Source: a virus. Taken from it: a DNA stretch of 24,598 nt. The DNA lies in the UHGV virus genome UHGV-0258679; one strand, written 5' to 3'. The translations under genes were made by a program, and so were the position numbers. The notes under the pieces were generated by a model. It saw only the letters and a list, made by a program, of their open reading frames with translations. It ran no database searches and had not been told where the DNA came from. Below are positions 1,645 to 24,273 of the stretch, one piece after another (within the stretch, counting starts at the first letter, position 1; every line of letters starts with the position of its first letter).

Positions 1645-1682
1645 GCCCCTATCGTTATAATACGCGGTAGGGGCGTTTTTGT
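1645..1682 (+). terminator. rho-independent terminator (GCCCCTA / loop / TAGGGGC, then GTTTTTGTTT)
   Basis: 7-bp stem and T-run between the stop at 1628 and the recombinase start; could also be part of a recombinase attachment site (dyad symmetry). Confidence 0.5.
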
Positions 1683-1693
1683 TTGGAAATGGT

Positions 1694-3373
1694 ATGAAAA
1701 CTAAACTGTATTCGTATATTCGCTTCTCGTCTATGCGTCAGAATGATGGTTCGAGTTATGAACGACAAATCAGGATGGCGAGAGAGGTTGCGGCAAAGTA
1801 TGACCTTGAACTGGTAAATGATTATCAGGATCTGGGTGTATCTGCGTTTAAGGGTGCTAACTCCAAAACAGGGGCGCTATCTCGTTTCCTTGATGCAATT
1901 GGTAGATCCGTTCCTGTTGGTAGCTGGCTATTCATTGAAAACTTGGACCGCTTATCCCGTGCCGATATTGTCAGTGCGCAGGAGTTATTCCTTTCAATCA
2001 TCCGTAGGGGGATAACCATTGTTACTGGCATGGATAACAAGATCTACTCGCTGGATACTGTTACCGCTAATCCGATGGACCTGATGTTCTCCATCCTTTT
2101 ATTCATCCGTGGTAACGAGGAAAGTCAGACTAAGCGCAATCGTACTAACTCAAGCGCACTGATTAAGATTAAAGCCCATCAAGAAAATCCCCAGAATCCG
2201 GCAGTGGCAATCGAGGAAGTTGGAAAGAATATGTGGTGGACTGATACCACTTCCGGTTATGTGCTGCCTCATCCGGTGTACTTCCCTGTTGTTCAGGAGA
2301 TTGTGGAATTACGGAAGAATGGACGTTCAACCGCCGAAATACTGGATCACCTTAACGAGACATATACACCGCCACCAGCAGTAAGCAACAAGAAGCATTC
2401 AAAATGGTCACGGGCAATGGTTGAAAGGTTGTTCCATACCCGCGCTTTGATTGGTATCAAGGAGGTCTCTGTCGATGGTGTTAACTATGAGTTAAAGGAT
2501 TATTACCCTCGTGTTATTGATGATGCTACGTTCTATCACCTTAAGAAAAATATTGGTGCTAGAGCATGGAACTTTGGAGACAAGGAAGAAGTTAAACCGA
2601 TCCCCCTGCTTAGTGGTATTGGCCTATTGAAATGTGATCATTGCGGTTGCGCTATGGTTAAAGTGAAGGGAACGAACAAACGTTCTGACCAGTATCGTTA
2701 TACATGTGATGCGACCCGTTCACGTAGACTTGATTGCGAGCATCCAAACTGGAGTTTTCGAGGTGATCAATTAGAGAAAGCTGTATTGCAATTGCTGGCT
2801 GATAAAATCTGGATTGCTGAGGATAAGGCTAATCCGGTTCCGGCTTTGAAAGTACAGGTTGATGAGATATCACGCAAGATTGATAACCTGATTGCCCTTT
2901 CTGCTATGACAGGAGCAACGAAGGAGCTAGCCGATCAGATTACTACCCTCAATAGCGAGCGTGAAACACTCTACAATCAGATCAAGATGGCAGAAGAGGA
3001 AATGTATTCTGTGGACTCTCAAGGCTGGGAGAAGCTCGCAGAATTTGATTTAGAAGATGTTTATAACGAGGAACGACTAAAGGTCCGGTTTAAGATTAAG
3101 CAAGCTCTAAAGCGGATCGGGTGTAGCAGGATTGACAGGAATAAAAACTTGTTTGTACTGGAATACATCGATGGAAAGACCCAGAGAGTTGTAATAGAAA
3201 ATTCAAGAGGAACGAGGAAAGGACAAATCTTTGTCGATTTGAAAACTATCAATGATAGGCAGATTCTGGAGAGTAACGGGCTTGTTTTGCATCCATGTTT
3301 AGACATGCTGACAGATAAGAACTGGAAACCAGAAGAGGAAATACCAGGTCCATTACAGGAATTTGGAATTTAA
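1694..3373 (+). CDS. large serine recombinase (integrase-type: resolvase catalytic domain plus recombinase/zinc-ribbon/coiled-coil C-terminal region)
   Basis: N-terminus YSYIRFSSMRQ matches the catalytic YxRVSTxxQ serine motif; LDRLSR motif; downstream Cys cluster CDHCGCAM...YRYTCD...C is zinc-ribbon-like; about 560 aa. The ORF-track start at 1679 is TTG; ATG at 1694 is the more likely start. Confidence 0.85.
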   Translation: MKTKLYSYIRFSSMRQNDGSSYERQIRMAREVAAKYDLELVNDYQDLGVSAFKGANSKTGALSRFLDAIGRSVPVGSWLFIENLDRLSRADIVSAQELFLSIIRRGITIVTGMDNKIYSLDTVTANPMDLMFSILLFIRGNEESQTKRNRTNSSALIKIKAHQENPQNPAVAIEEVGKNMWWTDTTSGYVLPHPVYFPVVQEIVELRKNGRSTAEILDHLNETYTPPPAVSNKKHSKWSRAMVERLFHTRALIGIKEVSVDGVNYELKDYYPRVIDDATFYHLKKNIGARAWNFGDKEEVKPIPLLSGIGLLKCDHCGCAMVKVKGTNKRSDQYRYTCDATRSRRLDCEHPNWSFRGDQLEKAVLQLLADKIWIAEDKANPVPALKVQVDEISRKIDNLIALSAMTGATKELADQITTLNSERETLYNQIKMAEEEMYSVDSQGWEKLAEFDLEDVYNEERLKVRFKIKQALKRIGCSRIDRNKNLFVLEYIDGKTQRVVIENSRGTRKGQIFVDLKTINDRQILESNGLVLHPCLDMLTDKNWKPEEEIPGPLQEFGI

Positions 3374-3411
3374 GCGGCCTAAATCGACGTATAACGAGCT
3401 AAACACTTTAA

Positions 3412-3434
3412 GGGGTACATCTGTACCCCTTTTT
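3412..3434 (+). terminator. rho-independent terminator (GGGGTAC / loop / GTACCCC, then TTTTT), at a convergent junction
   Basis: GC stem with a T-run directly after the recombinase stop; plus- and minus-strand genes converge here. Confidence 0.6.
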
Positions 3435-3446
3435 AATTTAATTGTA

Positions 3447-4445
3447 TTAAAGAGCCTCTAAAGGGCTTAAATCGAGTTCTAAGTCTTCCGGTGTTAAATC
3501 AGCTAACGGTGCATTCATCCACTGCGATAAATCTCGTTCTATGTCTTCATCACTAATGTAGTTGTTCAGATTGATTGCGTTGGTATCATCAAAATACATT
3601 GGCTTAGATGGGTTGGTGTGGATGTATTCATTGATGAATGATTTAACATCTTTCAGCTTGCTAATCGGTAGCGTTTCTGTGAATCCGCTATTCATTACCT
3701 TACGTGGGATTTTCTTGCCCTGAATATTCTTTTTAATCCCCATTTCTAAATCACCAGCTTTCCATCCAATGTTAAACAAATGTGAGCATTCAAAGGTGAT
3801 TTTCTCGCTGGTGTGCTTCTGGTGTTCTCTTACCCGTTGCATCGGATCTTTGCGAGTGGTAATTCCATATTTGAAAAACTTCTCGCCAACACGAATTAGA
3901 TAAAAGTGCATAGGGCGCTGTGCAAACTTGTTTCTGATAACCTGTTTTCTACCATTCTGAATTGATTTAAGTACACCCCTAACCAAAGGGCATGTTAACC
4001 CGCCTTGTCTGCGGTTATTATGTAAATCACCTTTCTTGTGAATCTTTCCGTGGCACTTACAACGAAGAATTAGTTTAGTGTCAACACCCTGATAAGGTTC
4101 AGCCAGACCTAACACATCCCACCCTATCGGCTTGTAGAACTTGCGAGCGTTTTCTAAGTGTTCTTCTTCGGTAAATCTAAACTTCTTCTTAGGCGGTGAT
4201 ACTCTATCTTTGCCAGTAAACTGACCAGTTAGAACATGACTAATACATGGCGTTTTAACCTTTCCGTTAACTTCTATGCAAACTTTGGTGTTCTGGAATG
4301 GTTTCTTTACAGGAAGCACAAAACCACTGTATAACCATCCATGCACTTGACAAACTTTAATGATTCTGGTTTCATATTCGACCGGAGGGGTCGCACGTTT
4401 GCTTTTTGCGGTAAATTCGATATCCTTTGCTAAAGTAGTATTCAT
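3447..4445 (-). CDS. Zn-finger plus GIY-YIG-like (T5orf172-like) nuclease-domain protein, 332 aa; candidate homing endonuclease or DNA-binding regulator
   Basis: N-terminal half has Cys/His pairs (CQVH, C...C..H, CKCHGKIH); C-terminal half has HFYLIRVGEKFFKYGITTRKDPMQRVREHQ, resembling the GIY...YIG...R...E core; acidic C-terminal tail. Assigned from motif resemblance only. Confidence 0.45.
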   Translation of the reverse strand: MNTTLAKDIEFTAKSKRATPPVEYETRIIKVCQVHGWLYSGFVLPVKKPFQNTKVCIEVNGKVKTPCISHVLTGQFTGKDRVSPPKKKFRFTEEEHLENARKFYKPIGWDVLGLAEPYQGVDTKLILRCKCHGKIHKKGDLHNNRRQGGLTCPLVRGVLKSIQNGRKQVIRNKFAQRPMHFYLIRVGEKFFKYGITTRKDPMQRVREHQKHTSEKITFECSHLFNIGWKAGDLEMGIKKNIQGKKIPRKVMNSGFTETLPISKLKDVKSFINEYIHTNPSKPMYFDDTNAINLNNYISDEDIERDLSQWMNAPLADLTPEDLELDLSPLEAL

Positions 4446-6298: not shown

Positions 6299-6460
6299 TA
6301 ATAACGAAAAGACCCCCGCCAGTGTCCTTAGCAATTGTTCATCCACGGTCATAGCCGGGAGTTCAAGCCCAAAGGACGTTAGCAGAGGTCTAATAGCTAC
6401 GTTATAAGTGAGGGCGACAATCAAGAGATAACCAAAATATTTCTTAAGTTTATTCTTCAT
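6299..6460 (-). CDS. small membrane protein, 53 aa (MKNKLKKYFGYLLIVALTYNVAI...)
   Basis: Hand-translated, not in the ORF track; RBS AAGGGG 7 nt upstream; one clear hydrophobic helix; no Cys, so not a lipoprotein. Confidence 0.4.
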
Positions 6461-6478
6461 ATATTCACCCCTTTATTA

Positions 6479-6757
6479 TTATTTTTGTTTGAGTATGTCG
6501 AGAACTTGGTCAAATTTGGCGTCCATCGCAACCACTTTCTTCTCTATACCGTGTAGTGTTTGTTCCATTTGGTAAACACGTTCAGCAATCTGAGTATGGT
6601 TATTCTGCATCGTCTCAAACTTCTGGTTTAACAATGCGTCGCTGGATTCCAATTTCGACAATCTATTTTCTGTGGCTAATTGATTTCGGTGAAGTCTCCA
6701 AAGCCCACCACAAATTAAGGCGATAACACCGATACCGCCATATATAATTTCAGTCAT
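6479..6757 (-). CDS. signal-anchored coiled-coil membrane protein, about 92 aa (i-spanin-like or superinfection-exclusion-like architecture)
   Basis: Start moved to the internal ATG (MTEIIYGG...) preceded by GGGGGCGTA; N-terminal TM segment IIYGGIGVIALICGGLW then a predicted coiled coil. Confidence 0.45.
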   Translation of the reverse strand: MTEIIYGGIGVIALICGGLWRLHRNQLATENRLSKLESSDALLNQKFETMQNNHTQIAERVYQMEQTLHGIEKKVVAMDAKFDQVLDILKQK

Positions 6758-14693: not shown

Positions 14694-15035
14694 TTAACCG
14701 CTTCTGAGTTTCTCAAGCAAAGATGGATCGAACATGCTCAATGTTGCAGCTTTACGTTCTTCTTCTTTCTTGCGTGCAAGTTCTTCCAGTTCTTCTTTAG
14801 TTTTAAAGAGTTTTTCTTCTCTAATTAATTGGAATTGGCTAGGCTTGAGTTTACGTGCAGTTTCGCGTGTCATTCCTTGTGACGTCATATACATGGAATA
14901 TTGCAACATCGCATTCTGCATATCATGAAACGCGGGGCTTTGTGGTTCTAAGTAGGTGTCGAAAATGTATAATTTCCAAAACAGAGTGATTGGCATATTA
15001 TCCATTTCATCTTTACTAAGCCCCGATCTCATCAT
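14694..15035 (-). CDS. tail assembly chaperone, T-frame segment (probable G-T frameshift product)
   Basis: ORF in the -1 frame relative to the upstream G-like ORF; the -1 frame is open across the last 5 codons of G; E/K-rich C-terminus. Confidence 0.5.
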   Translation of the reverse strand: MMRSGLSKDEMDNMPITLFWKLYIFDTYLEPQSPAFHDMQNAMLQYSMYMTSQGMTRETARKLKPSQFQLIREEKLFKTKEELEELARKKEEERKAATLSMFDPSLLEKLRSG

Positions 15036-15064: not shown

Positions 15065-15373
15065 TTACTTTACCTCGTTTTCAATTACTGCCGGATCTTG
15101 CATCAATGACGCTTGAGCAACCAAACCGATTAATTCACTTCGAACGTTAGTATACAGTGCCTTAACTTGTTCCATAGATTCAAATACTGGTTTACCGTCT
15201 TCATCTTCAATACAACGAAGAATCGAACGTTCATCACGGTCTTCTTTATCAGTATTAAAAACATGTTCGTTAAATTCTTTTACTGACATAGGGCGAGCAT
15301 AGAAAGTGAATCCACCGATGGTCAGAGATTCGCGTTTCGGAGAGAGTGCGGCTAACATTTCATTAATATTCAT
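15065..15373 (-). CDS. tail assembly chaperone (gpG-like), 102 aa
   Basis: Small acidic ORF between the major tail gene and the tape measure, the conserved chaperone position. Confidence 0.55.
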   Translation of the reverse strand: MNINEMLAALSPKRESLTIGGFTFYARPMSVKEFNEHVFNTDKEDRDERSILRCIEDEDGKPVFESMEQVKALYTNVRSELIGLVAQASLMQDPAVIENEVK

Positions 15374-15416: not shown

Positions 15417-15445
15417 GGAAACAAAAAAGCCACCCCGAAGGATGG
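15417..15445 (-). terminator. rho-independent terminator after the major tail gene (stem GCCACCC/GGATGGC with one G-U pair, TTCG loop, then TTTTTT)
   Basis: Seen directly in the sequence on the minus strand. Confidence 0.6.
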
Positions 15446-15455
15446 CTAGAGAATA

Positions 15456-15926
15456 TTAGACTTTCTGGAAAACAGCTTGTTTAACCGGAGCACCATCTAC
15501 TACAAAGGTGAAAGAACGACCTACTACAGCATCTTCACCGCCCGTCATGGTAGTTTTAGACAGGAAGCCGTTATAAGCGATGTGCACACCAGATTTTTTC
15601 GTAGCGTCGATGTAGTAAGCAATTTTAAGCTGTACGCGCTTACCGTCTTCGGTTGCTTTAATCAGTTTTTCGTGTACTTCGTTACCCGGCATGTAGTTGA
15701 TCGAAAGTTCGATATCCGGTACAGACATACGACCAACCAGCTTACGGTTATAAGCACCAGAGAAGTTAGGAACATCGATCGTAGAACGTTCTACACCAGT
15801 TTCAGGGAAAGCCGCACATTCTGGAATTTCCAGATAGCTTTCACTGTCAAGATCGGTGTTAGTTACTTCTTCATGCAGAAACAGACCAACGAGGCCACCA
15901 GAAAAAATATCAAATTTAGTAGTCAT
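15456..15926 (-). CDS. major tail (tube) protein, lambda gpV N-domain-like, 156 aa
   Basis: Position immediately upstream of the G/T chaperones; RBS AAGGAAAAG; segment ...INYMPGNEVHEKLIKATEDGKRVQLKIAYYIDAT... resembles the lambda V N-domain as recalled; strong terminator downstream. Confidence 0.6.
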   Translation of the reverse strand: MTTKFDIFSGGLVGLFLHEEVTNTDLDSESYLEIPECAAFPETGVERSTIDVPNFSGAYNRKLVGRMSVPDIELSINYMPGNEVHEKLIKATEDGKRVQLKIAYYIDATKKSGVHIAYNGFLSKTTMTGGEDAVVGRSFTFVVDGAPVKQAVFQKV

Positions 15927-15980
15927 TATTCTTTTCCTTCTATTTTAAACAATAGGGTACATACCCGTAATTCTATTTAT

Positions 15981-16283
15981 TTAGCGGTTGCTCAAGCGTC
16001 TATAACGAAGATGAGCGATCCCCCTATTTGTGCTAACTGTAATTACTGCTCCTTGCGGTGCAATACAAGAATGGATCTGTCCCCAATCATGACCCTTATG
16101 GCTTCCAGAAACACAAAAACCATGAATAAACAATTCAGAGTCACCGCCGCCACCACCGGAAGAATGAGCACAGAATGAAATAGTCCCGAAAGCGTCGGCT
16201 GTCCAACCGTTAGGAATATCAAACCATCCTTGATTTGCTTTACCCGCCCTATTCCCCAAAGCGCCATCTACCCAAAATGCCAT
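15981..16283 (-). CDS. glycine-rich small protein, paralogue 3 of a tandem triplet (100 aa)
   Basis: Shares M-x-x-W...(W/Y)FDIPNGW...G-rich...V(S/T) with the two upstream ORFs; its ATG overlaps the upstream stop by 1 nt (TAATG). Confidence 0.55.
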   Translation of the reverse strand: MAFWVDGALGNRAGKANQGWFDIPNGWTADAFGTISFCAHSSGGGGGDSELFIHGFCVSGSHKGHDWGQIHSCIAPQGAVITVSTNRGIAHLRYRRLSNR

Positions 16284-16588
16284 TAGTGCATTCTCCTGAA
16301 TTTGAAATAATGCAAACTACCTTTACCCAATGTAAAGCTAACGGTAGCACCAGCGCCAACTAAAGAACTAGCGCCCCAACTCCCAGCATCACCAGCATGA
16401 TGGCCTGATTCAATCAATCCATTTACAGCCAATTCAGAATCAAGATCACCAGCACCGTTAATGGCTTCCATATGAGCAAAAACAATTCCGCATGAATCAG
16501 TAACCCAGCCGTTGGGGATATCAAAATATCCACCATTAGCCCAAATACTAATAGCGTTTGACATTCTTTGATTTATCCATCCAGCCAT
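16283..16588 (-). CDS. glycine-rich small protein, paralogue 2 of a tandem triplet (101 aa)
   Basis: Contains YFDIPNGW and ends ...YFKFRRMH; start lies 2 nt after the upstream stop. Confidence 0.55.
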   Translation of the reverse strand: MAGWINQRMSNAISIWANGGYFDIPNGWVTDSCGIVFAHMEAINGAGDLDSELAVNGLIESGHHAGDAGSWGASSLVGAGATVSFTLGKGSLHYFKFRRMH

Positions 16589-16590
16589 AA

Positions 16591-16887
16591 TTAAAACTCC
16601 ATGAATTTAAAATATTCAACACCACCTTCACCCCCTAAACCAAAGGAGACGGTGCAGCCAGCAGGAACAAACGAATTTATAGTAGATCCCCAATTGGTCC
16701 CACCACGACGACGAGCAACGGTCAAACCATCTACGTTAATATGTGCATCAGACCACCCACCACCAGCATTATGACGCATTACAGCGACACCAGCACGAGC
16801 AGTACCATAGCCGTTAGGAATATCAAATACATGCCATTTTAAAGCATCGATTTTAGTATTAATTTCACTACTTACCCAATATCCCAT
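16591..16887 (-). CDS. glycine-rich small protein, paralogue 1 of a tandem triplet (98 aa)
   Basis: Contains VFDIPNGY and ends ...YFKFMEF; RBS AAGGA upstream; follows the tail fibre gene. Confidence 0.55.
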   Translation of the reverse strand: MGYWVSSEINTKIDALKWHVFDIPNGYGTARAGVAVMRHNAGGGWSDAHINVDGLTVARRRGGTNWGSTINSFVPAGCTVSFGLGGEGGVEYFKFMEF

Positions 16888-16925
16888 ATAAGAATCCTTA
16901 GCGGAGATTTCTCCCCGCTTTCCAA

Positions 16926-19900
16926 TTACCCTAATTTAGCTTCAATTGCAGCAAGACGTTCACGAAGAAGTTTATTTTCTTCGCTCATTTCTTGGACCGC
17001 TTTAATTAAAAGCGCGTTCACTGCGGAGTTTGAAATTGTTAAAATTTCTTCTGGGTTATCAAAACCACCAATTTTTGCGGTTTTAACAGCTTCCGGTAAT
17101 ACCTCTTGTAAATCCTGTGCGATAATACCAATCTCATGACCTATAACTTCTCGGTCATTAAGAGATTTAACTTTATCGTAGGTTTTAACTTTGAGTTTAT
17201 TTACCTTATCCACCGCATTTTCTTCGTAATCTTCAACATTAATTTTCAGACGACGATCGGAACGAATATAAACATCGTTAAAGTTTCCGTTACCAGTGGC
17301 ATGAAATTCTCCACTTGCATGGAATTGATAATCAGCACCCTGAACATGAAGAACCGCTGCCGCAGTATTATTACTATCACCGGGACAATGAACGTCCATA
17401 GCAGCGATGTAGTTACGCCCCCAATCAACCGCTTTCCAAATAGCATGAGCACTATCAACGCTTTGTTGACAGTCAACCAACAAACCAGCAGGTCGGTCTC
17501 TCCATGCAACATATGCACCACCAGAAACCTCACCACGGATAAGTCCTTGATCTGCGGCATAAGGAACACGCCCTTCCAGTTTAATCATCGCGCCCTGGAA
17601 GTGATGTGTAAATTGTCCACCGTGGTTATTGCGAATATGTAAAATACCCTCATCTGTAGCCCAGATAACAGCCTTTTCCGTATCGCTATCATCTCTAAAC
17701 CAGATATGGCGTGCACCAGTTGAGTTTTTGACGGTTATTCCGTTAGGTCCATGCACGGTCAAAGCACCAGATACATCAAATAAAACGGTGTTGTCTGTTC
17801 TACGTTCAGTATAGAAGTGATAACCTTTGGAATCGCCAACTTCCATTACTGCCGCGCGACCAACTTCTGAATTTCCCCAATTATTAATAGAGAATCGTTC
17901 AGAGCTATTATTCATCTGATTTAGGTATAATGTACCATCAGTGAATGTTTCGCCAAAGAAACGAGTTTTAACGCCGTTAGTACCCCCCACGCGTTCAAAT
18001 TCAGCCAAGAAACCTTTGGAATCTCGCATACTCAAAACGTTATTGCGTCCTGTATTACTGTTACCCCAATGGATTAATTCAATATAGTCCATTGACTGAC
18101 GAGACCCTGATCTAAACACCATATTATCTTCGATGCGGGTGCTACCATCAATTCCCAGATGTAAACAGCGTGCGGTAGCTGTGCCACCTAGATCCAATCC
18201 ACCTTCGGCAAAATCATAGCTGAATGGTCTACGGCTATTCCACCCACCGAAAGAATCTTTTAAATCGGTAGTAAGAATATGGAAGCTAGAACCATCATTT
18301 CTAAAAATTAAGCCATAGTTGCCACCTTTAACAGCCAAACGAGCATTTTCAGATAATGCAACTTCGCTATTCATTACAATTTTCTGGCCTTTACCGCCAG
18401 TAATATGTAATTCACCGTTTTCGATCAAGTTTATAGAGTTTTGACCGTTATCGTTCCACCAAATAAAATCTTTGGTCGTCAAATCACCAAAACCAAACCA
18501 ACCATTACGAACATCTTGACCAGTGCGATAATCCATGAAATTAAAATGGCTTGCTTCGTTTGGTCCTCGACGAATATCAATACCAGCATTAGAACCGGAA
18601 CCTAAGCCACCATCGATGGTCAATCTACGAATATGTAACCCGGTTGCAGCCGAAAGCAATAATTGTTGGTTTACATCGTCATATCCAGTAGCAAGACGAT
18701 AATTTTGATCATCAACAGTTTCATGCCAGATAGTGGCAGGAGCAGAACTACGGAAGCGACGCAACATCTTTTTGCTGTTAGTTTGTTGTTCGTTCAAATG
18801 CTCAATGTCATATTGGCCTTGATGGTTTCCAGCAAAGTTTAACGTCCCACGGTTGCTAAAGTTATTGAACGATGAAATGTTAAGAGCATCAAAAATTTCA
18901 TCTGCAACAGGTTTTTCACCACCCAGATATTCAGGAGTATCCAACAGGTTTAAAGAAACACCACCGGAAGAAACTTGATATTCTGCTAAAACAAATCCTG
19001 TATGTGCACCGTAGTAAGCGTAAAGATCATAATTGTCGCCATCGGTTGGAATAGCGCAAAAATGTTGTTCATAATGCCAAATAGTATAATACGCATTGAA
19101 TACAACACCTTTCGGGCTATTGTTGCCGCATCGAATCACCAATTCGATAATATTGGCTTGTCCATTCTGTCCGACGTTATAACCGTTGCCACCAACTAAG
19201 CGGATCTTAGCCGTGCGACCGTGTTGTTGTGGCATTGTCAAAGTGCCTAGTTTAAACCAACCGCCCTCGATACCAAAATTAAGCGTCTTCTGGAACAGGC
19301 GGTCAATTTCTGCTTTCGAATATGCGCCAATTTCAGCCGGAGTAGGTTTATCGCCTTCATGATACATGCGGTGAGAATATGCCAAATGTCCCAATTCATC
19401 ATAGCCGTATGTTCTTACAGTAGCATGTGGATTAGACCCATAAGTGAACTCGAAGCCACGAGCATGATTAACACCAGATGGATGGGGAACATGCAAGATC
19501 ATAGCAATATGACCCGCCAGGTCATTCATGCGAAATGCACCAAAGTAATCAAGATTAAGAGCACTCGGATCATCAAAAGGGTTTGCGGTCTTAGACAGCA
19601 AATAACCATCAGTATAAGTGTTTACGTGTTTTTTGATGTACTTGCCATCACTTGATCCATCGGCTGCATCAATACGGCTTTCTAAGCGTGCCAATTCAGA
19701 ATCAGTGTAAGACTTGTTATTGTCAACTTTGCTATGAATTGCTGTATTTTTGGCTTCAACATCACGGGTTAATGCTGCGACGTTATCCGCTGCCTCTTGC
19801 TTATTGGCTGCAATCACACCAGTAAGGTTATTGTAGGTGTCAGTTAACTGATTTTCCGCATAGGCGTGATTTGCTGCGATAGTGCGGTCAGTTTCTGCCT

Positions 19901-20456
19901 TAATCAAATCAACTTTGTCATTGATTGCTTTGTGATTGCTTACGATGGTTGCATCGGTACGGGATTTAATATCATCAACTTTTTTATTGATGCGGGTGTC
20001 CAGTTCCTGAGTTGCTACAGCAGCCGCATTTTTATTAGCGTTGATGGTATCCGACAATTCAGCTTTAACACCAGCAAGATCGGAAGCAGCTTTATTTTTA
20101 TTGGCCTCGATTGTCGCGTCGGTTTCGCGTTTAATTACATCAACTTTATTGTTAATTTCTGCGTGATTTGCTGAGATGGTTGCATCAGTAGTTTGTTTAA
20201 TTTCATCTACTTTAGCGTGAATATTGCGGTCATTTACTGCAATTGTGCTATCTAGTTCTTGTTTGTTAGCATCAACTTTAGATTCTAGTGCCGCGTGAGT
20301 TTCAGGAGAAACAGAGATTTGAACTACTTCATGATCTCGGTCTTTGGTAAAAATAACATGGTCTTTAAGGTTGATTGCTACCTCACCGACCTGTAATTGT
20401 TCCGGCGTTGGCTTTTTGCCAGCTACATTAGTTCGCTTAAATTGGATTGATTGCAT
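16926..20456 (-). CDS. long tail fibre, 1176 aa, with N-terminal repeat shaft and C-terminal intramolecular chaperone (peptidase S74-like) domain
   Basis: About seven tandem 22-aa repeats of the form KVDxIKxxTDATIxAN; C-terminus ...SDRRLKINVEDY...GIIAQDLQEVLPEAV... matches the endosialidase/T5 L-shaped-fibre chaperone signature; RBS GAGGTGA. Confidence 0.8.
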   Translation of the reverse strand: MQSIQFKRTNVAGKKPTPEQLQVGEVAINLKDHVIFTKDRDHEVVQISVSPETHAALESKVDANKQELDSTIAVNDRNIHAKVDEIKQTTDATISANHAEINNKVDVIKRETDATIEANKNKAASDLAGVKAELSDTINANKNAAAVATQELDTRINKKVDDIKSRTDATIVSNHKAINDKVDLIKAETDRTIAANHAYAENQLTDTYNNLTGVIAANKQEAADNVAALTRDVEAKNTAIHSKVDNNKSYTDSELARLESRIDAADGSSDGKYIKKHVNTYTDGYLLSKTANPFDDPSALNLDYFGAFRMNDLAGHIAMILHVPHPSGVNHARGFEFTYGSNPHATVRTYGYDELGHLAYSHRMYHEGDKPTPAEIGAYSKAEIDRLFQKTLNFGIEGGWFKLGTLTMPQQHGRTAKIRLVGGNGYNVGQNGQANIIELVIRCGNNSPKGVVFNAYYTIWHYEQHFCAIPTDGDNYDLYAYYGAHTGFVLAEYQVSSGGVSLNLLDTPEYLGGEKPVADEIFDALNISSFNNFSNRGTLNFAGNHQGQYDIEHLNEQQTNSKKMLRRFRSSAPATIWHETVDDQNYRLATGYDDVNQQLLLSAATGLHIRRLTIDGGLGSGSNAGIDIRRGPNEASHFNFMDYRTGQDVRNGWFGFGDLTTKDFIWWNDNGQNSINLIENGELHITGGKGQKIVMNSEVALSENARLAVKGGNYGLIFRNDGSSFHILTTDLKDSFGGWNSRRPFSYDFAEGGLDLGGTATARCLHLGIDGSTRIEDNMVFRSGSRQSMDYIELIHWGNSNTGRNNVLSMRDSKGFLAEFERVGGTNGVKTRFFGETFTDGTLYLNQMNNSSERFSINNWGNSEVGRAAVMEVGDSKGYHFYTERRTDNTVLFDVSGALTVHGPNGITVKNSTGARHIWFRDDSDTEKAVIWATDEGILHIRNNHGGQFTHHFQGAMIKLEGRVPYAADQGLIRGEVSGGAYVAWRDRPAGLLVDCQQSVDSAHAIWKAVDWGRNYIAAMDVHCPGDSNNTAAAVLHVQGADYQFHASGEFHATGNGNFNDVYIRSDRRLKINVEDYEENAVDKVNKLKVKTYDKVKSLNDREVIGHEIGIIAQDLQEVLPEAVKTAKIGGFDNPEEILTISNSAVNALLIKAVQEMSEENKLLRERLAAIEAKLG

Positions 20457-20529
20457 CTAATCACCTCACATAAAACAGGAATAAGGGAGGCGTTAACCTC
20501 CCCGCGTCATGTTTTATTTAGAGAAGCAA

Positions 20530-21363
20530 TCAGTATTCCCCGAAGTCGATCCTGTCATGGATAGAAACGGCTTCAATCTCGGCTGGTGTCGGTTTTTCTT
20601 CTGTGGAATACACTTTCACCCATCCAGAATTACCATCTTTCTGGACTGTGCGAACTCGTAAACGTGGTGCGCCGGAAGCGGTGCAAGTTAATTGCCATCC
20701 ACCATCTTCATTAGGTTGAACGTGAATTAGTGAAGTATCAGCACTAAATGGGTTAGATGCGCTCGATCCCTGATAGGTTACGAAACGGTTTCCGGCTAAT
20801 GCCTCGCTATCAATCGGACCAGTGAATGGGCTAACGCCTGAGCCTACGCCATAATCCCCTTGTCGCAGAATTTTTCCCTCGGTCGCTATACCCCTTGCGA
20901 GAATCCCGCCATCTGGTTCAAGTTTAAATTCCATTGTTACCGCTTTGTTATCACTACCACGGGTTTTGTGACTAGTGACATAAGCATCATAGATGACATA
21001 GTAACCAGTGTTAGCAGCACTATAGCCAGAGTTCACAACATAGAACATTCGGAAGCGTAAAGGTGTTTTATCCTCTACCGCTTTCATCAACATTGCTTGA
21101 TGTTCGTCATCCAGAACACGGTTTAACATGAGTGTTGTCGGTTCCAGTTTACGATAACCAGCAAGTTTCCCCGTAGCGTCCTGGTCATACTCTTCTAACG
21201 TCTGGATCTCTGTAGATTCGGTGATCGTAGGGAATGCTGCGATGTTCTCGATAGGACTAAATGCAGGATCGAAAAAGTCCGGCTGGTTATCCACCATAGT
21301 AGACACGGAGACTTCAACATGTGACCCCGTGAAAATGTCTAAGTTATCTTGTGTAATATTCAT
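20530..21363 (-). CDS. virion structural protein, 277 aa, ending in a KPTPAEI motif shared with the tail fibre (candidate fibre-associated or decoration protein)
   Basis: Position between the head-tail genes and the fibre; C-terminal ...EEKPTPAEIEAVSIHDRIDFGEY parallels GDKPTPAEIGAYSKAEIDR and KKPTPEQLQVGEVAIN in the fibre. Confidence 0.4.
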   Translation of the reverse strand: MNITQDNLDIFTGSHVEVSVSTMVDNQPDFFDPAFSPIENIAAFPTITESTEIQTLEEYDQDATGKLAGYRKLEPTTLMLNRVLDDEHQAMLMKAVEDKTPLRFRMFYVVNSGYSAANTGYYVIYDAYVTSHKTRGSDNKAVTMEFKLEPDGGILARGIATEGKILRQGDYGVGSGVSPFTGPIDSEALAGNRFVTYQGSSASNPFSADTSLIHVQPNEDGGWQLTCTASGAPRLRVRTVQKDGNSGWVKVYSTEEKPTPAEIEAVSIHDRIDFGEY

Positions 21364-22266: not shown

Positions 22267-24273
22267 TCATTCAGCGGAGATATGAAGAACTTTCAGAGCT
22301 TCCGGCTGAACTACGGTGAAGTCCAGGTCTACCCAGATACGCGGAACGATAGCAGACTGTGCACGGTAGGTAGTGTCATCCATATCCAGTTCCAGACCAC
22401 CCCATTCGCCGATCATGATACCGGAGAAGTCACCCAGAACGATGTGATCTGCCGGAATAACACCAGAAGTAACTACATCGTAACCAGCCAGTTTACCGTT
22501 TTCGATGATATAACCGGAAACGCCGTTATCTTTCAGGGTAGATTCCAGTTCAGCAGCAGTCGCACCGCTCATCGCAAACTTGATCGCCTGAGCAGGAACG
22601 CCAGCGTCGGTCAGTGCTGCAATTTCTTTCAGGAAGTCTTTGTAAGAGAAAGCGGCTTTCTTAGCAACGCGACCACCATCTACCAGTTGTTTAACCAGAC
22701 CAGCCGGACCACGAGTATTGTCTTTGTCAGACAGAATCAGTTGTTCCAGTTTGATGCGAACAGCTTTGTTAATATGATCAGTGATCAGGGTAGCAATATT
22801 CGGAACAGTTTTCAGAGACTGACGGCTGATCGGGTTGCCACCAGCAAAAGTTTTCGGAGCCATTTTCACGTTTGCAAATTCCGCCTTCGACTCGGGGGCA
22901 CTTCCATTTTCGTCCACAAAACCAAAGGCATCGACGCTGGAAGCAGTCATTTTCGGAACAGCGATCGGGCTATTCAGACCAGACAGAACAGTCACACCCA
23001 GACGACCCAAAACAGACTGCGGAAGCAGCATTTCTACATAGGATTCGGTCAGCAGTTTTTCGTCAGTTACAGCGGTCAGAGTAGCTTTGGTGTTACCTTC
23101 GGAAGCAGCACGCAGAGCAGCAGCCGGAACGAATACAGAGCCACCGCGAGCAGCACGACCACGCTGCATTGCAGCACCAGCAGCCATAGCGGAATATTCA
23201 GCTTCGTTAGCACCCAGAGCAGCACCATCTACCAGAGAGCGAATTACGTTGTTCAGGTCAAAAGTTTTTTCCATTTTAGAGTCCTTAATTTGTTCGTTGT
23301 TACGTTGAGCAGTAGCGATTTTATTTAGTGCCTTAGTGCGGAATGCTTCCGGCGTAATTTCTTTATTTGCCAATGCTCGTTTAAATTCTTCATCGTCTTC
23401 GTTAATATTTAACTCGCGTGCAATTTCGCGAATTTCTAATTCGTCTTCTTCGGAACGTTCAGCCACTTCCTCGGTTTTTTCTTCTTCAACCGGAGCGGCT
23501 TCACGTTCTTCTTTTACTTCTTCTTCCCGAACAGTTGAACTATCATCATCAACACTTTCAGGATGTTTAGCGTCTTTTCCGTCTTCGAGATTTTCATCTT
23601 CTTTATTCTCTTCAACTTGGCGCTCTTGAGTTTTTTCAACTTCCGGTTCTTTATTTTCTTCTACCGGAGTTTCTTCAACCTGAGCGGGTTCTTGTTCTTC
23701 TTTGATTTCTTCGATTTGTTCTTTAGTCATATCGCGTTTAGCCTCCAAATTAACTGTGATAGTATTTAGAGAGCGATTTAAACCGACAGAATCATCGGCA
23801 GGGACCGTCACAAATGAAATTTCAAAAGGTTCCCACTTAGTAACAATCAATTGTCCTTTGGCGTAATCGATGCGATATTCTTTAATGTCATAGCCGACAG
23901 AAATTTTTTCCATCGTACCTTCAATGACTTTATTACGAATATCATTAGACAAAGTGCCATGCTTGGAGAATTTAACCAGAGCACGGCCTACGTTATCCGC
24001 ATCGATTCGAGCGTTACAAACGACACCAATGTGATTATCGAAAATATGATTGAACAGCAACGGAGCGTTATTATTCAGACGAGACAGATCAACCGCTTCC
24101 GGTGTATGTACCAGAATTTCATCTAATACCACCATTTCTTGATTTTGCTCATCCCAGAATCGGCGCTGATAAGGCTGTTCACTGGAGAAAGCAATTTCAA
24201 ATTCGTATTGATCATTCTGCCCTTCGTTAATAACTCCACCGTAACCGTTAATATCGCGGCGAAATTTAAGCAT
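22267..24273 (-). CDS. fused prohead protease (HK97/U35-S78-like) - acidic scaffold-like linker - HK97-fold major capsid protein, 668 aa
   Basis: N-terminal about 170 aa resembles caudoviral prohead serine proteases (including ...EISFVTVPAD...); the middle is an E/K-rich low-complexity region; the C-terminal about 300 aa is capsid-like; RBS AAAGGTGG; strong terminators downstream. Confidence 0.8.
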   Translation of the reverse strand: MLKFRRDINGYGGVINEGQNDQYEFEIAFSSEQPYQRRFWDEQNQEMVVLDEILVHTPEAVDLSRLNNNAPLLFNHIFDNHIGVVCNARIDADNVGRALVKFSKHGTLSNDIRNKVIEGTMEKISVGYDIKEYRIDYAKGQLIVTKWEPFEISFVTVPADDSVGLNRSLNTITVNLEAKRDMTKEQIEEIKEEQEPAQVEETPVEENKEPEVEKTQERQVEENKEDENLEDGKDAKHPESVDDDSSTVREEEVKEEREAAPVEEEKTEEVAERSEEDELEIREIARELNINEDDEEFKRALANKEITPEAFRTKALNKIATAQRNNEQIKDSKMEKTFDLNNVIRSLVDGAALGANEAEYSAMAAGAAMQRGRAARGGSVFVPAAALRAASEGNTKATLTAVTDEKLLTESYVEMLLPQSVLGRLGVTVLSGLNSPIAVPKMTASSVDAFGFVDENGSAPESKAEFANVKMAPKTFAGGNPISRQSLKTVPNIATLITDHINKAVRIKLEQLILSDKDNTRGPAGLVKQLVDGGRVAKKAAFSYKDFLKEIAALTDAGVPAQAIKFAMSGATAAELESTLKDNGVSGYIIENGKLAGYDVVTSGVIPADHIVLGDFSGIMIGEWGGLELDMDDTTYRAQSAIVPRIWVDLDFTVVQPEALKVLHISAE

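Follow-up and report, generated by a model that had tools for sequence, protein, structure and literature searches.

A three-gene set behind chaperone-bearing phage side fibers is a candidate heterotrimeric tip adhesin

Three coupled paralogous genes follow the side tail fiber gene

The UHGV virus genome UHGV-0258679, whose 24,598 nucleotides (nt) were analyzed whole and are referred to here as the window, is that of a temperate Escherichia coli siphovirus, and this work concerns three small consecutive genes on its minus strand, copies A, B, and C (together, the trio). Copy A (16591–16887(−), 98 amino acids (aa)) belongs to an orthogroup ending in ..FKFMEF and is the most variable member at moderate divergence; copy B (16283–16588(−), 101 aa) belongs to an orthogroup ending in ..F(K/R)FRRM(H/W/Q); and copy C (15981–16283(−), 100 aa), the best conserved member, has the core GDSEL..HGFCVSGSH.G.DWG..HSC and an end reading ..LRYRRL... 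An earlier sequence-only reading of the window, made by a model, had described three consecutive paralogs of about 100 aa with one architecture, packed by 1–2 nt of spacing or by overlap, and both points were borne out. BLASTP among the paralogs gave E values of 5e-12 for A and B, 1e-13 to 9e-15 for B and C, and 7e-8 to 1.5e-10 for A and C, a relationship far above chance. The stop codon of A is separated from the start of B by 2 nt, the stop of B overlaps the start of C by one base (TAATG), and a Shine-Dalgarno-like AAGGA, GGAG, or AGGAG lies 9–11 nt 5′ of each open reading frame (ORF).

All of the motifs named by the sequence-only reading were recovered when the three copies were aligned. 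The alignment has 18 invariant columns, including W4, FDIPNG, and several glycines; each copy has the N-terminal M-x-x-W, a variant of the central motif (VFDIPNGY, YFDIPNGW, or WFDIPNGW), one Gly-rich loop (for instance HSSGGGGGDSELF in C), and a common aromatic/basic C-terminal strand. Because the ratio of nonsynonymous to synonymous substitution (dN/dS) across trio orthologs is 0.04–0.36 (0.05–0.36 for B), A, B, and C are all real genes under purifying selection; ORFs 15477–16178(+) and 16043–16267(−), which overlap the trio, are without comparable dN/dS support. Variability among orthologs is centered on the Gly-rich loop (residues ∼36–52) and two other segments, around a conserved core.

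Directly upstream of A lies the side tail fiber gene (16926–20456(−), 1176 aa). Distally, its product resembles gp37 (PHROG 1699, "long tail fiber distal subunit," E = 1.8e-138) and contains a Gp34_trimer domain (Pfam PF21446, E = 1.7e-16); its C terminus is an intramolecular chaperone of the Peptidase_S74 family (PF13884, E = 5.4e-15) with a match to S16 gp37 (PDB 6F45). The start of this S74 part is marked by the motif NDVYIRSD (17256–17279(−)), the presumed autocleavage site, which aligns with ..RDLNVSSDRRIKK of S16 gp37; by analogy with that protein, the fiber residues preceding NDVYIRSD would become a new C-terminal end for the docking of an external adhesin. On the other side, downstream of C, is a tube-like gene (15456–15926(−), 156 aa; PHROG 158 at 1.2e-19), and the trio thus sits between the fiber and a tube-like gene, as the sequence-only reading had placed it.

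The 38-nt spacer between the fiber stop and the start of A contains an 8-bp stem-loop (16900–16919(−)) with no U-tract after it; its predicted RNA folding energy is −13 to −15 kcal/mol (z = −2.0), and phage G2248 has an annotated "terminator" at the matching place. Terminator-like hairpins at 20484–20503(−) and 15428–15447(−) enclose the fiber gene, the trio, and the 156-aa tube-like gene, and no further hairpin followed by a T-run was found between them. Promoter-like sites were no commoner than in shuffled sequence, and none was positioned to drive the trio. Judged from these signals, the trio appears to lack an internal promoter or terminator of its own and to lie with the late tail genes. 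The fiber and trio are also flanked by two tube-like paralogs that both match PHROG 158, the 156-aa gene and a longer one of 277 aa (20530–21363(−)), which has an additional C-terminal part of ∼120 aa.

The family is rare and has no named relatives

The sequence-only reading had not recognized the family, and searches against profile libraries agreed with it: A, B, and C had no significant match in Pfam, PHROGs, NCBIfam, or PADLOC. Below threshold, A matched two PHROGs labeled "tail protein" weakly (E = 0.008 and 0.05) and C matched one unrelated Pfam family; for A and B, Pfam gave no match at E ≤ 1. Nor did Pfam or PHROGs give a profile match to a head-tail completion family, the homology that the sequence-only reading had named as speaking against its proposal. 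A word-indexed search of 5.8 billion proteins returned 35 clusters, all unnamed, those with a named source being from E. coli, Shigella, or Salmonella, and a full HMMER scan of 1.84 billion representatives gave 20 matches, of which ∼15 are real proteins of 97–129 aa. Large proteins (1118–3591 aa) among the remote matches were rejected as repeat artifacts, for example ankyrin-like repeats.

At the level of genomes, the family occurs in 4 of 50,697 phage records, all Krischvirus: G37-3, G2248, UPWr_E1, and KFS-EC, the last with a decayed copy. Prophages related to the window are present in 55 of 5426 complete E. coli genomes, and a full-length trio in 22 of the 5426. A scan of a viral-contig collection found only close E. 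coli prophage relatives, and a scan of a genome-contig collection found only one motif match, which was set aside as due to chance (L008). Literature searches returned no description of the family, nor of these genes in G37-3, G2248, or UPWr_E1. The trio family is therefore rare.

The trio occupies the slot of the gp38 adhesin

The sequence-only reading had considered the position of the trio odd for a siphovirus. The position is real, and it is explained by the finding that the distal fiber and the trio form one mobile cassette (15965–19370) that the window has in common with T4-like phages. This segment, which comprises the distal two-thirds of the fiber gene and the trio, is 87.5% identical in nucleotide sequence to the T4-like Krischvirus vB_EcoM_G37-3, and its trio part is 97% identical. 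At the right-hand junction, homology to G37-3 stops ∼17 nt past the stop codon of C, and the 156-aa tube-like gene lies outside the cassette. The view that the trio belongs with the fiber and not with the tube or the head-tail module is supported.

Krischvirus G37-3 and G2248 have the trio between gp37 and a small ORF preceding holin t. In phiS (Krischvirus) and ECML-134 (Tequatrovirus), a homologous gp37 is followed by the gp38 adhesin (∼260 aa) in the slot of the trio, and in the sister prophages TO6 and ETEC4085, gp38 likewise stands in place of the trio. The two prophages further retain a recombination scar after gp38 (E. coli TO6, L005 2864–3076(−); ETEC4085, L033 ∼3350–3560), a 70-aa ORF that joins the first 9 codons of the Krischvirus ORF located 3′ of gp38 to C residues 41–100, in frame in TO6 and frameshifted in ETEC4085. 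Its opening residues, MVYNIIIGA, are the N terminus encoded by that Krischvirus gene, which lies after either gp38 or the trio (G37-3, L001:5722–5961), and the scar documents gene transfer from a T4-like lytic phage to a temperate siphovirus. No gp38 homolog is present in the complete genome of G37-3, a cultured lytic phage carrying the trio, or in the window; in KFS-EC, no gene is annotated as gp38 within one 17-kb region, a statement about annotation without a tblastn search. Taken together, these loci indicate that the trio and gp38 are exchanged allelically at one locus. Some Krischvirus phages are reported to carry gp38 ∼55 kb away from gp37 and not beside it (PMC12032242; bioRxiv 10.64898/2026.04.02.716166), and the gp37-adjacent slot of such phages could hold an intact or decayed trio.

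In most T-even phages, gp37 carries a self-cleaving chaperone, after the removal of which a gp38 monomer attaches and recognizes the receptor (PMC9569957). gp38 docks by way of three helices, each tipped with a Trp residue that enters one of three symmetry-equivalent pockets of gp37 (PMC6851490), and the processed gp37 end has a role in this docking (PMC6851490, PMC9569957). The likeness of the trio to gp38 of the T2/T6/S16 type (PDB 6F45; NCBI "receptor-recognizing protein") extends beyond the shared and exchanged locus of sister prophages and Krischvirus: each lies immediately 3′ of the gene for a gp37-type fiber with a self-cleaving S74 chaperone at its end, each is separately encoded and co-expressed late, and both combine Gly-rich variable segments with a conserved N terminus. 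Where gp38 presents three Trp-tipped helices to a three-fold fiber end, each subunit of the trio could contribute an N-terminal helix.

The analogy to a gp38-type adhesin drawn by the sequence-only reading thus stands as regards the slot and the swap, but it does not extend to homology. There is no sequence or profile similarity between the trio and gp38, including the conserved N-terminal attachment domain of gp38: BLASTP at relaxed settings gave compositional matches only, and hhalign of a 20-sequence trio profile against a gp38 alignment gave 0.4% probability over 10 aligned columns. gp38 is a single monomer of ∼260 aa, whereas the trio comprises three proteins of ∼100 aa; gp38 has five Gly-rich motifs and four hypervariable segments per chain, whereas each trio copy has one Gly-rich loop; and gp38 is built of a β-helix and a polyglycine-II sandwich, whereas the trio is predicted to form a jelly-roll sandwich. 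Salmonella B copies read (I/V)P..GW(I/L)S, which is reminiscent of VPGWIGS in gp38.

Several relatives of the window phage (among 14EC017, L3Cip3, KSC64, OW848980, OkiPb01713, and CFSAN061761) have insertion sequence (IS) elements or a GIY-YIG nuclease gene in or beside the side-fiber region, the IS elements being IS421, IS3 family, ISVsa5, and IS903B. The side fiber of these relatives may often be inactivated, and a homing nuclease could help to explain the intense recombination in this region.

One A, one B, and one C follow an S74 fiber in 11 lineages

We compared 11 lineages, namely Salmonella prophages (L018, L019, and L037), metagenomic contigs (L020/21, L026/27, L028, L029/30, L035, and L036), and the E. 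coli and Krischvirus alleles, which diverge down to ∼30% identity per ortholog. Every intact locus has one A, one B, and one C, in the order A-B-C, with 1–4 nt of spacing or overlap; in two loci C had been missed by gene callers yet is present. B orthologs of the Salmonella and T7-like loci have an additional N-terminal extension of 10–30 aa. The trio directly follows an S74-domain fiber gene in all 11 lineages, and because the fiber at L029 has a T7 gp17-type N terminus (PF03906), the cassette occurs with siphovirus, myovirus, and podovirus fibers alike. A, B, and C are ancient, separately conserved orthogroups, older than the divergence of all 11 lineages.

The sequence-only reading had offered alternative fiber-tip adhesins as one of several explanations for the diversified tandem copies and had suggested looking for variation in copy number, of which there was none among the intact loci. 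A fixed set with each member present once fits subunits of one complex better than mutual alternatives. A version close to that first idea, in which A, B, and C form three separate homotrimers, alternative tips that give the fibers of one virion different specificities, can point to the facts that C1q/TNF-like knobs are usually homotrimers, that the three copies differ most in their loops, and that the A allele recombines apart from B and C (at L016, A is 89% identical and B and C are 99–100% identical). Were the copies alternatives, however, their number and order should vary, whereas they are translationally coupled in a fixed order, and the orthogroups predate the divergence of the lineages, each keeping its own signature C terminus. 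We consider separate homotrimers quite unlikely.

At the S74 end of the fiber, the last ∼20 residues before ND(V/I)x(I/V)RSD are conserved, and the only constant partner of the trio is this S74 fiber end, with no shaft domain shared by all loci. This bears on a further alternative, that the trio consists of lateral decorations or accessory lectins of the fiber that bind glycans from the side of the shaft and do not cap the tip. Such a position would sit poorly both with the absence of a constant shaft partner and with the exchange of the trio for a tip adhesin, and it is very improbable.

The same distribution can be set against the idea of a passenger gene set ("moron") lodged at a recombination hot spot behind the fiber, with a role outside the virion such as superinfection exclusion, receptor masking, or anti-defense. 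Sites downstream of fiber genes are classic moron locations, the family is without annotated relatives, and the trio is dispensable in some genomes. However, A, B, and C have no signal peptide, no lipobox, and no PADLOC match; they are translationally coupled inside a late structural operon and have no promoter or terminator of their own; they travel with S74 fibers across sipho-, myo-, and podovirus backgrounds and are swapped specifically with gp38; and their predicted fold, described below, is typical of fiber knobs. A passenger role is therefore improbable.

A jelly-roll fold is predicted for A and C

AlphaFold2 models of A and C reached a predicted local distance difference test (pLDDT) score of 79.5 (∼90 for residues 20–98) and 78.7, respectively. 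Both models show a 7-strand β-sandwich after a low-confidence N-terminal helix, located at residues 2–12 in C, and the predicted fold of A and C is thus an N-terminal helix followed by a C1q/TNF-like jelly roll. The Gly-rich stretches of the trio are confined to loops of the sandwich. Foldseek searches of viral models with these structures retrieved mainly C-terminal parts of phage tail fibers and C1q/collagen-repeat proteins, with weak E values of 3e-4 to 2e-2, and A, B, and C had no Pfam match to a C1q or TNF family. In enterobacterial sequences, all three copies begin with M-x-x-W-(V/I), located on a predicted helix. A β-propeller, in which three 2-blade subunits would form 6 blades, was considered after a profile search of the PDB gave, as its only match, designed "Pizza" NHL propellers (E = 3.5e-5). 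It was ruled out: a single 19-residue motif, PNGxxxDxxG, accounts for the match by summation over repeats, and the AlphaFold2 models are sandwiches.

Two known systems resemble this architecture. The C1q head (C1qA/B/C) and C1q/TNF trimers, including the heterotrimeric lymphotoxin α1β2, trimerize at the end of a fibrous stalk, and in the C1q head three paralogous chains form a heterotrimer, which parallels the A, B, and C genes. Unlike the trio, with ∼80 residues and 7 predicted strands, the C1q/TNF sandwich has ∼130 residues and 10 strands; the trio is also without a covalent stalk, its subunits being encoded separately from the fiber. The second system is Pam3 gp24 of a myocyanophage ("pam3-like adhesins"), a homotrimeric adhesin with an N-terminal helix, a TNF-like domain, and a Gly-rich domain, which its authors consider a structural analog of gp38 (PMC9608196). 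Its domain logic is that proposed for the trio: an N-terminal helix that docks by way of a three-helix bundle, then a TNF-like sandwich, and Gly-rich parts for binding the receptor, all in a trimeric assembly. In contrast to the trio, Pam3 gp24 is one protein of 280 aa that forms a homotrimer, docks on the baseplate, requires a separate chaperone, and has a large four-layer polyglycine domain.

A heterotrimeric tip on the processed fiber end is the favored reading

In the mechanism that we propose, A, B, and C would be late structural proteins that assemble 1:1:1 into a small heterotrimeric knob, with a C1q/TNF-like jelly roll and a short N-terminal helix from each subunit. The S74 intramolecular chaperone of the fiber would cleave itself off and leave a new C-terminal end on the side-fiber trimer, on which the knob would dock as the distal, receptor-contacting tip, in the role and position of monomeric T2/S16-type gp38. 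The N-terminal helices would mediate docking, as the three Trp-tipped helices do in gp38, and we infer that the receptor would be contacted through the variable Gly-rich loops. A heterotrimeric tip is favored because of the fixed 1:1:1 set, the translational coupling, the knob-type fold, the lack of secretion signals, the late-operon position, the association with S74 ends only, and the exchange with gp38; for trimer formation itself, the strict 1:1:1 gene conservation is suggestive, indirect support. That the trio is a 1:1:1 heterotrimeric knob on the processed fiber end and acts as an adhesin, analogous but not homologous to gp38, is the reading we tentatively place first, with the balance of confidence lying slightly under even. 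All four alternatives weighed in this work (separate homotrimers, lateral decoration, a passenger role, and the chaperone cap discussed below) were judged less likely.

Several observations weigh against the favored reading, the first of which concern loss of the trio. KFS-EC, a viable phage, retains only a truncated A/C fusion, a single 107-aa ORF (L002 6121–6444(−)) in which A(1–89) is fused at the Gly-rich stretch to a truncated C fragment. In the IMG/VR prophage L010, B is frameshifted and truncated to 73 aa (L010 ∼6300–6603), and DEC5A-type prophages have no accessory gene between the fiber and tube genes. Thus, the fiber can apparently do without the trio. Further, the window phage also has a λ J-type central fiber with its own receptor-binding domain, and therefore the side fiber and its tip may be dispensable. 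The N-terminal Trp, which would be the counterpart of the docking residues of gp38, is missing in the most divergent lineages (L021, L028, and L035). Finally, the fiber domain just upstream of the S74 site comes in at least three types with the trio, two of which are also found with gp38. Because this domain varies independently of the accessory gene, covariation points to no specific docking partner.

A correlation of the trio with the type of fiber tip was at first suggested by an initial alignment, in which the trio and gp38 appeared to share one tip type and a third type went with decay or absence; it was dropped after wider sampling. KFS-EC, L010, and DEC5A, in which the trio is decayed or absent, all have the "type III" distal fiber domain, a weak trend from non-independent loci, and the same domain occurs with an intact trio (L009, L015, and UTAK-14) and with gp38 (ETEC4085). 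In the gp37 of G2248 (L031 5447–8491(−)), the type III domain is joined by a further ..LGDNDTGLMWGGDG.. domain and by an S74 part of another subtype; this fiber is nevertheless followed by an intact trio and has the same C-terminal tail, ..EENKLLRDRLAAIEAKL, as the window fiber. The Salmonella fiber at L037 ends in the gp38-associated tail (..ELKTPFWKKIIRKFRK), yet the trio follows. The last 15–25 codons of the fiber gene look like a recombination joint.

The tolerated loss of the trio in KFS-EC and L010 would also suit a transient assembly factor, a "chaperone cap" that acts on the distal fiber in folding or maturation, perhaps shielding the end left by S74 cleavage, and is absent or released from the mature virion. 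Genes directly downstream of a fiber often encode chaperones (T4 gp38, λ and Mu Tfa, and Pam3 gp25), Pam3 gp25 forms a 3:3 cap (PMC9608196), and "transient chaperone caps" are among the findings reported for Alteromonas phages (PMC10579305). The trio resembles these tail fiber assembly proteins (T4 gp38 and gp57A, λ and Mu Tfa, and Pam3 gp25), some of which remain bound at the fiber tip, in being small genes directly downstream of a fiber. Unlike them, it has no similarity to the Tfa or Caudo_TAP families in Pfam, PHROGs, or NCBIfam, and each fiber with which it is associated already has its own S74 intramolecular chaperone. Moreover, exchange with the gp38 adhesin is not what one would expect of a chaperone, and variability centered on loops resembles that of a binding surface. 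A chaperone cap is accordingly unlikely.

Many coliphages owe their host range to a small adhesin carried on a fiber that a self-cleaving chaperone has matured; of such adhesins, only gp38 is well described. A recent survey, a 2026 preprint, predicts that chaperone-bearing fibers probably depend on undetected external adhesin partners (bioRxiv 10.64898/2026.05.12.724579). The trio, present both in cultured phages (G37-3, G2248, and UPWr_E1) and in prophages of E. coli and Salmonella, is a concrete candidate for a second such partner, of different fold and stoichiometry. In kind it would be a separately encoded fiber-tip adhesin, as already known, on a different fold and with a three-gene stoichiometry that are previously undescribed. 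It is conceivable, although a doubtful step beyond the tip reading, that the trio represents a new class of receptor-binding adhesin, a separately encoded heterotrimeric C1q-like cap that plugs onto any S74-matured fiber end. If so, three different chains would let a three-fold fiber bind an asymmetric receptor, a problem for which gp38 uses a single pseudo-three-fold monomer, and the cap would move as a cassette between sipho-, myo-, and podoviruses. Confirmation would allow better prediction of receptors from the genomes of phages that "lack gp38," would provide a compact swappable module for host-range engineering, and would add a viral example of a heterotrimeric C1q-like head.

Other features of the window

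The remaining genes of the window include a large serine recombinase (1679–3373(+)) on the strand opposite to the trio, with Resolvase, Recombinase, and Zn_ribbon_recom domains and a TTG start. As the presumed integrase of the prophage, it marks one end of the element. A fusion of a prohead protease (Peptidase_S78) and a major capsid protein (Phage_capsid) is encoded at 22267–24273(−) (668 aa). The window also encodes an M15 endolysin, a tape-measure protein, and tail assembly chaperones, and its J-type central fiber has a C-terminal receptor-binding domain of the λ J type. The tail assembly chaperone-like pair (15065–15373(−) and 14694–15035(−)), with weak matches to TAC_13 and Phage_tail_T, consists of separate ORFs divided by a gap of ∼30 nt.

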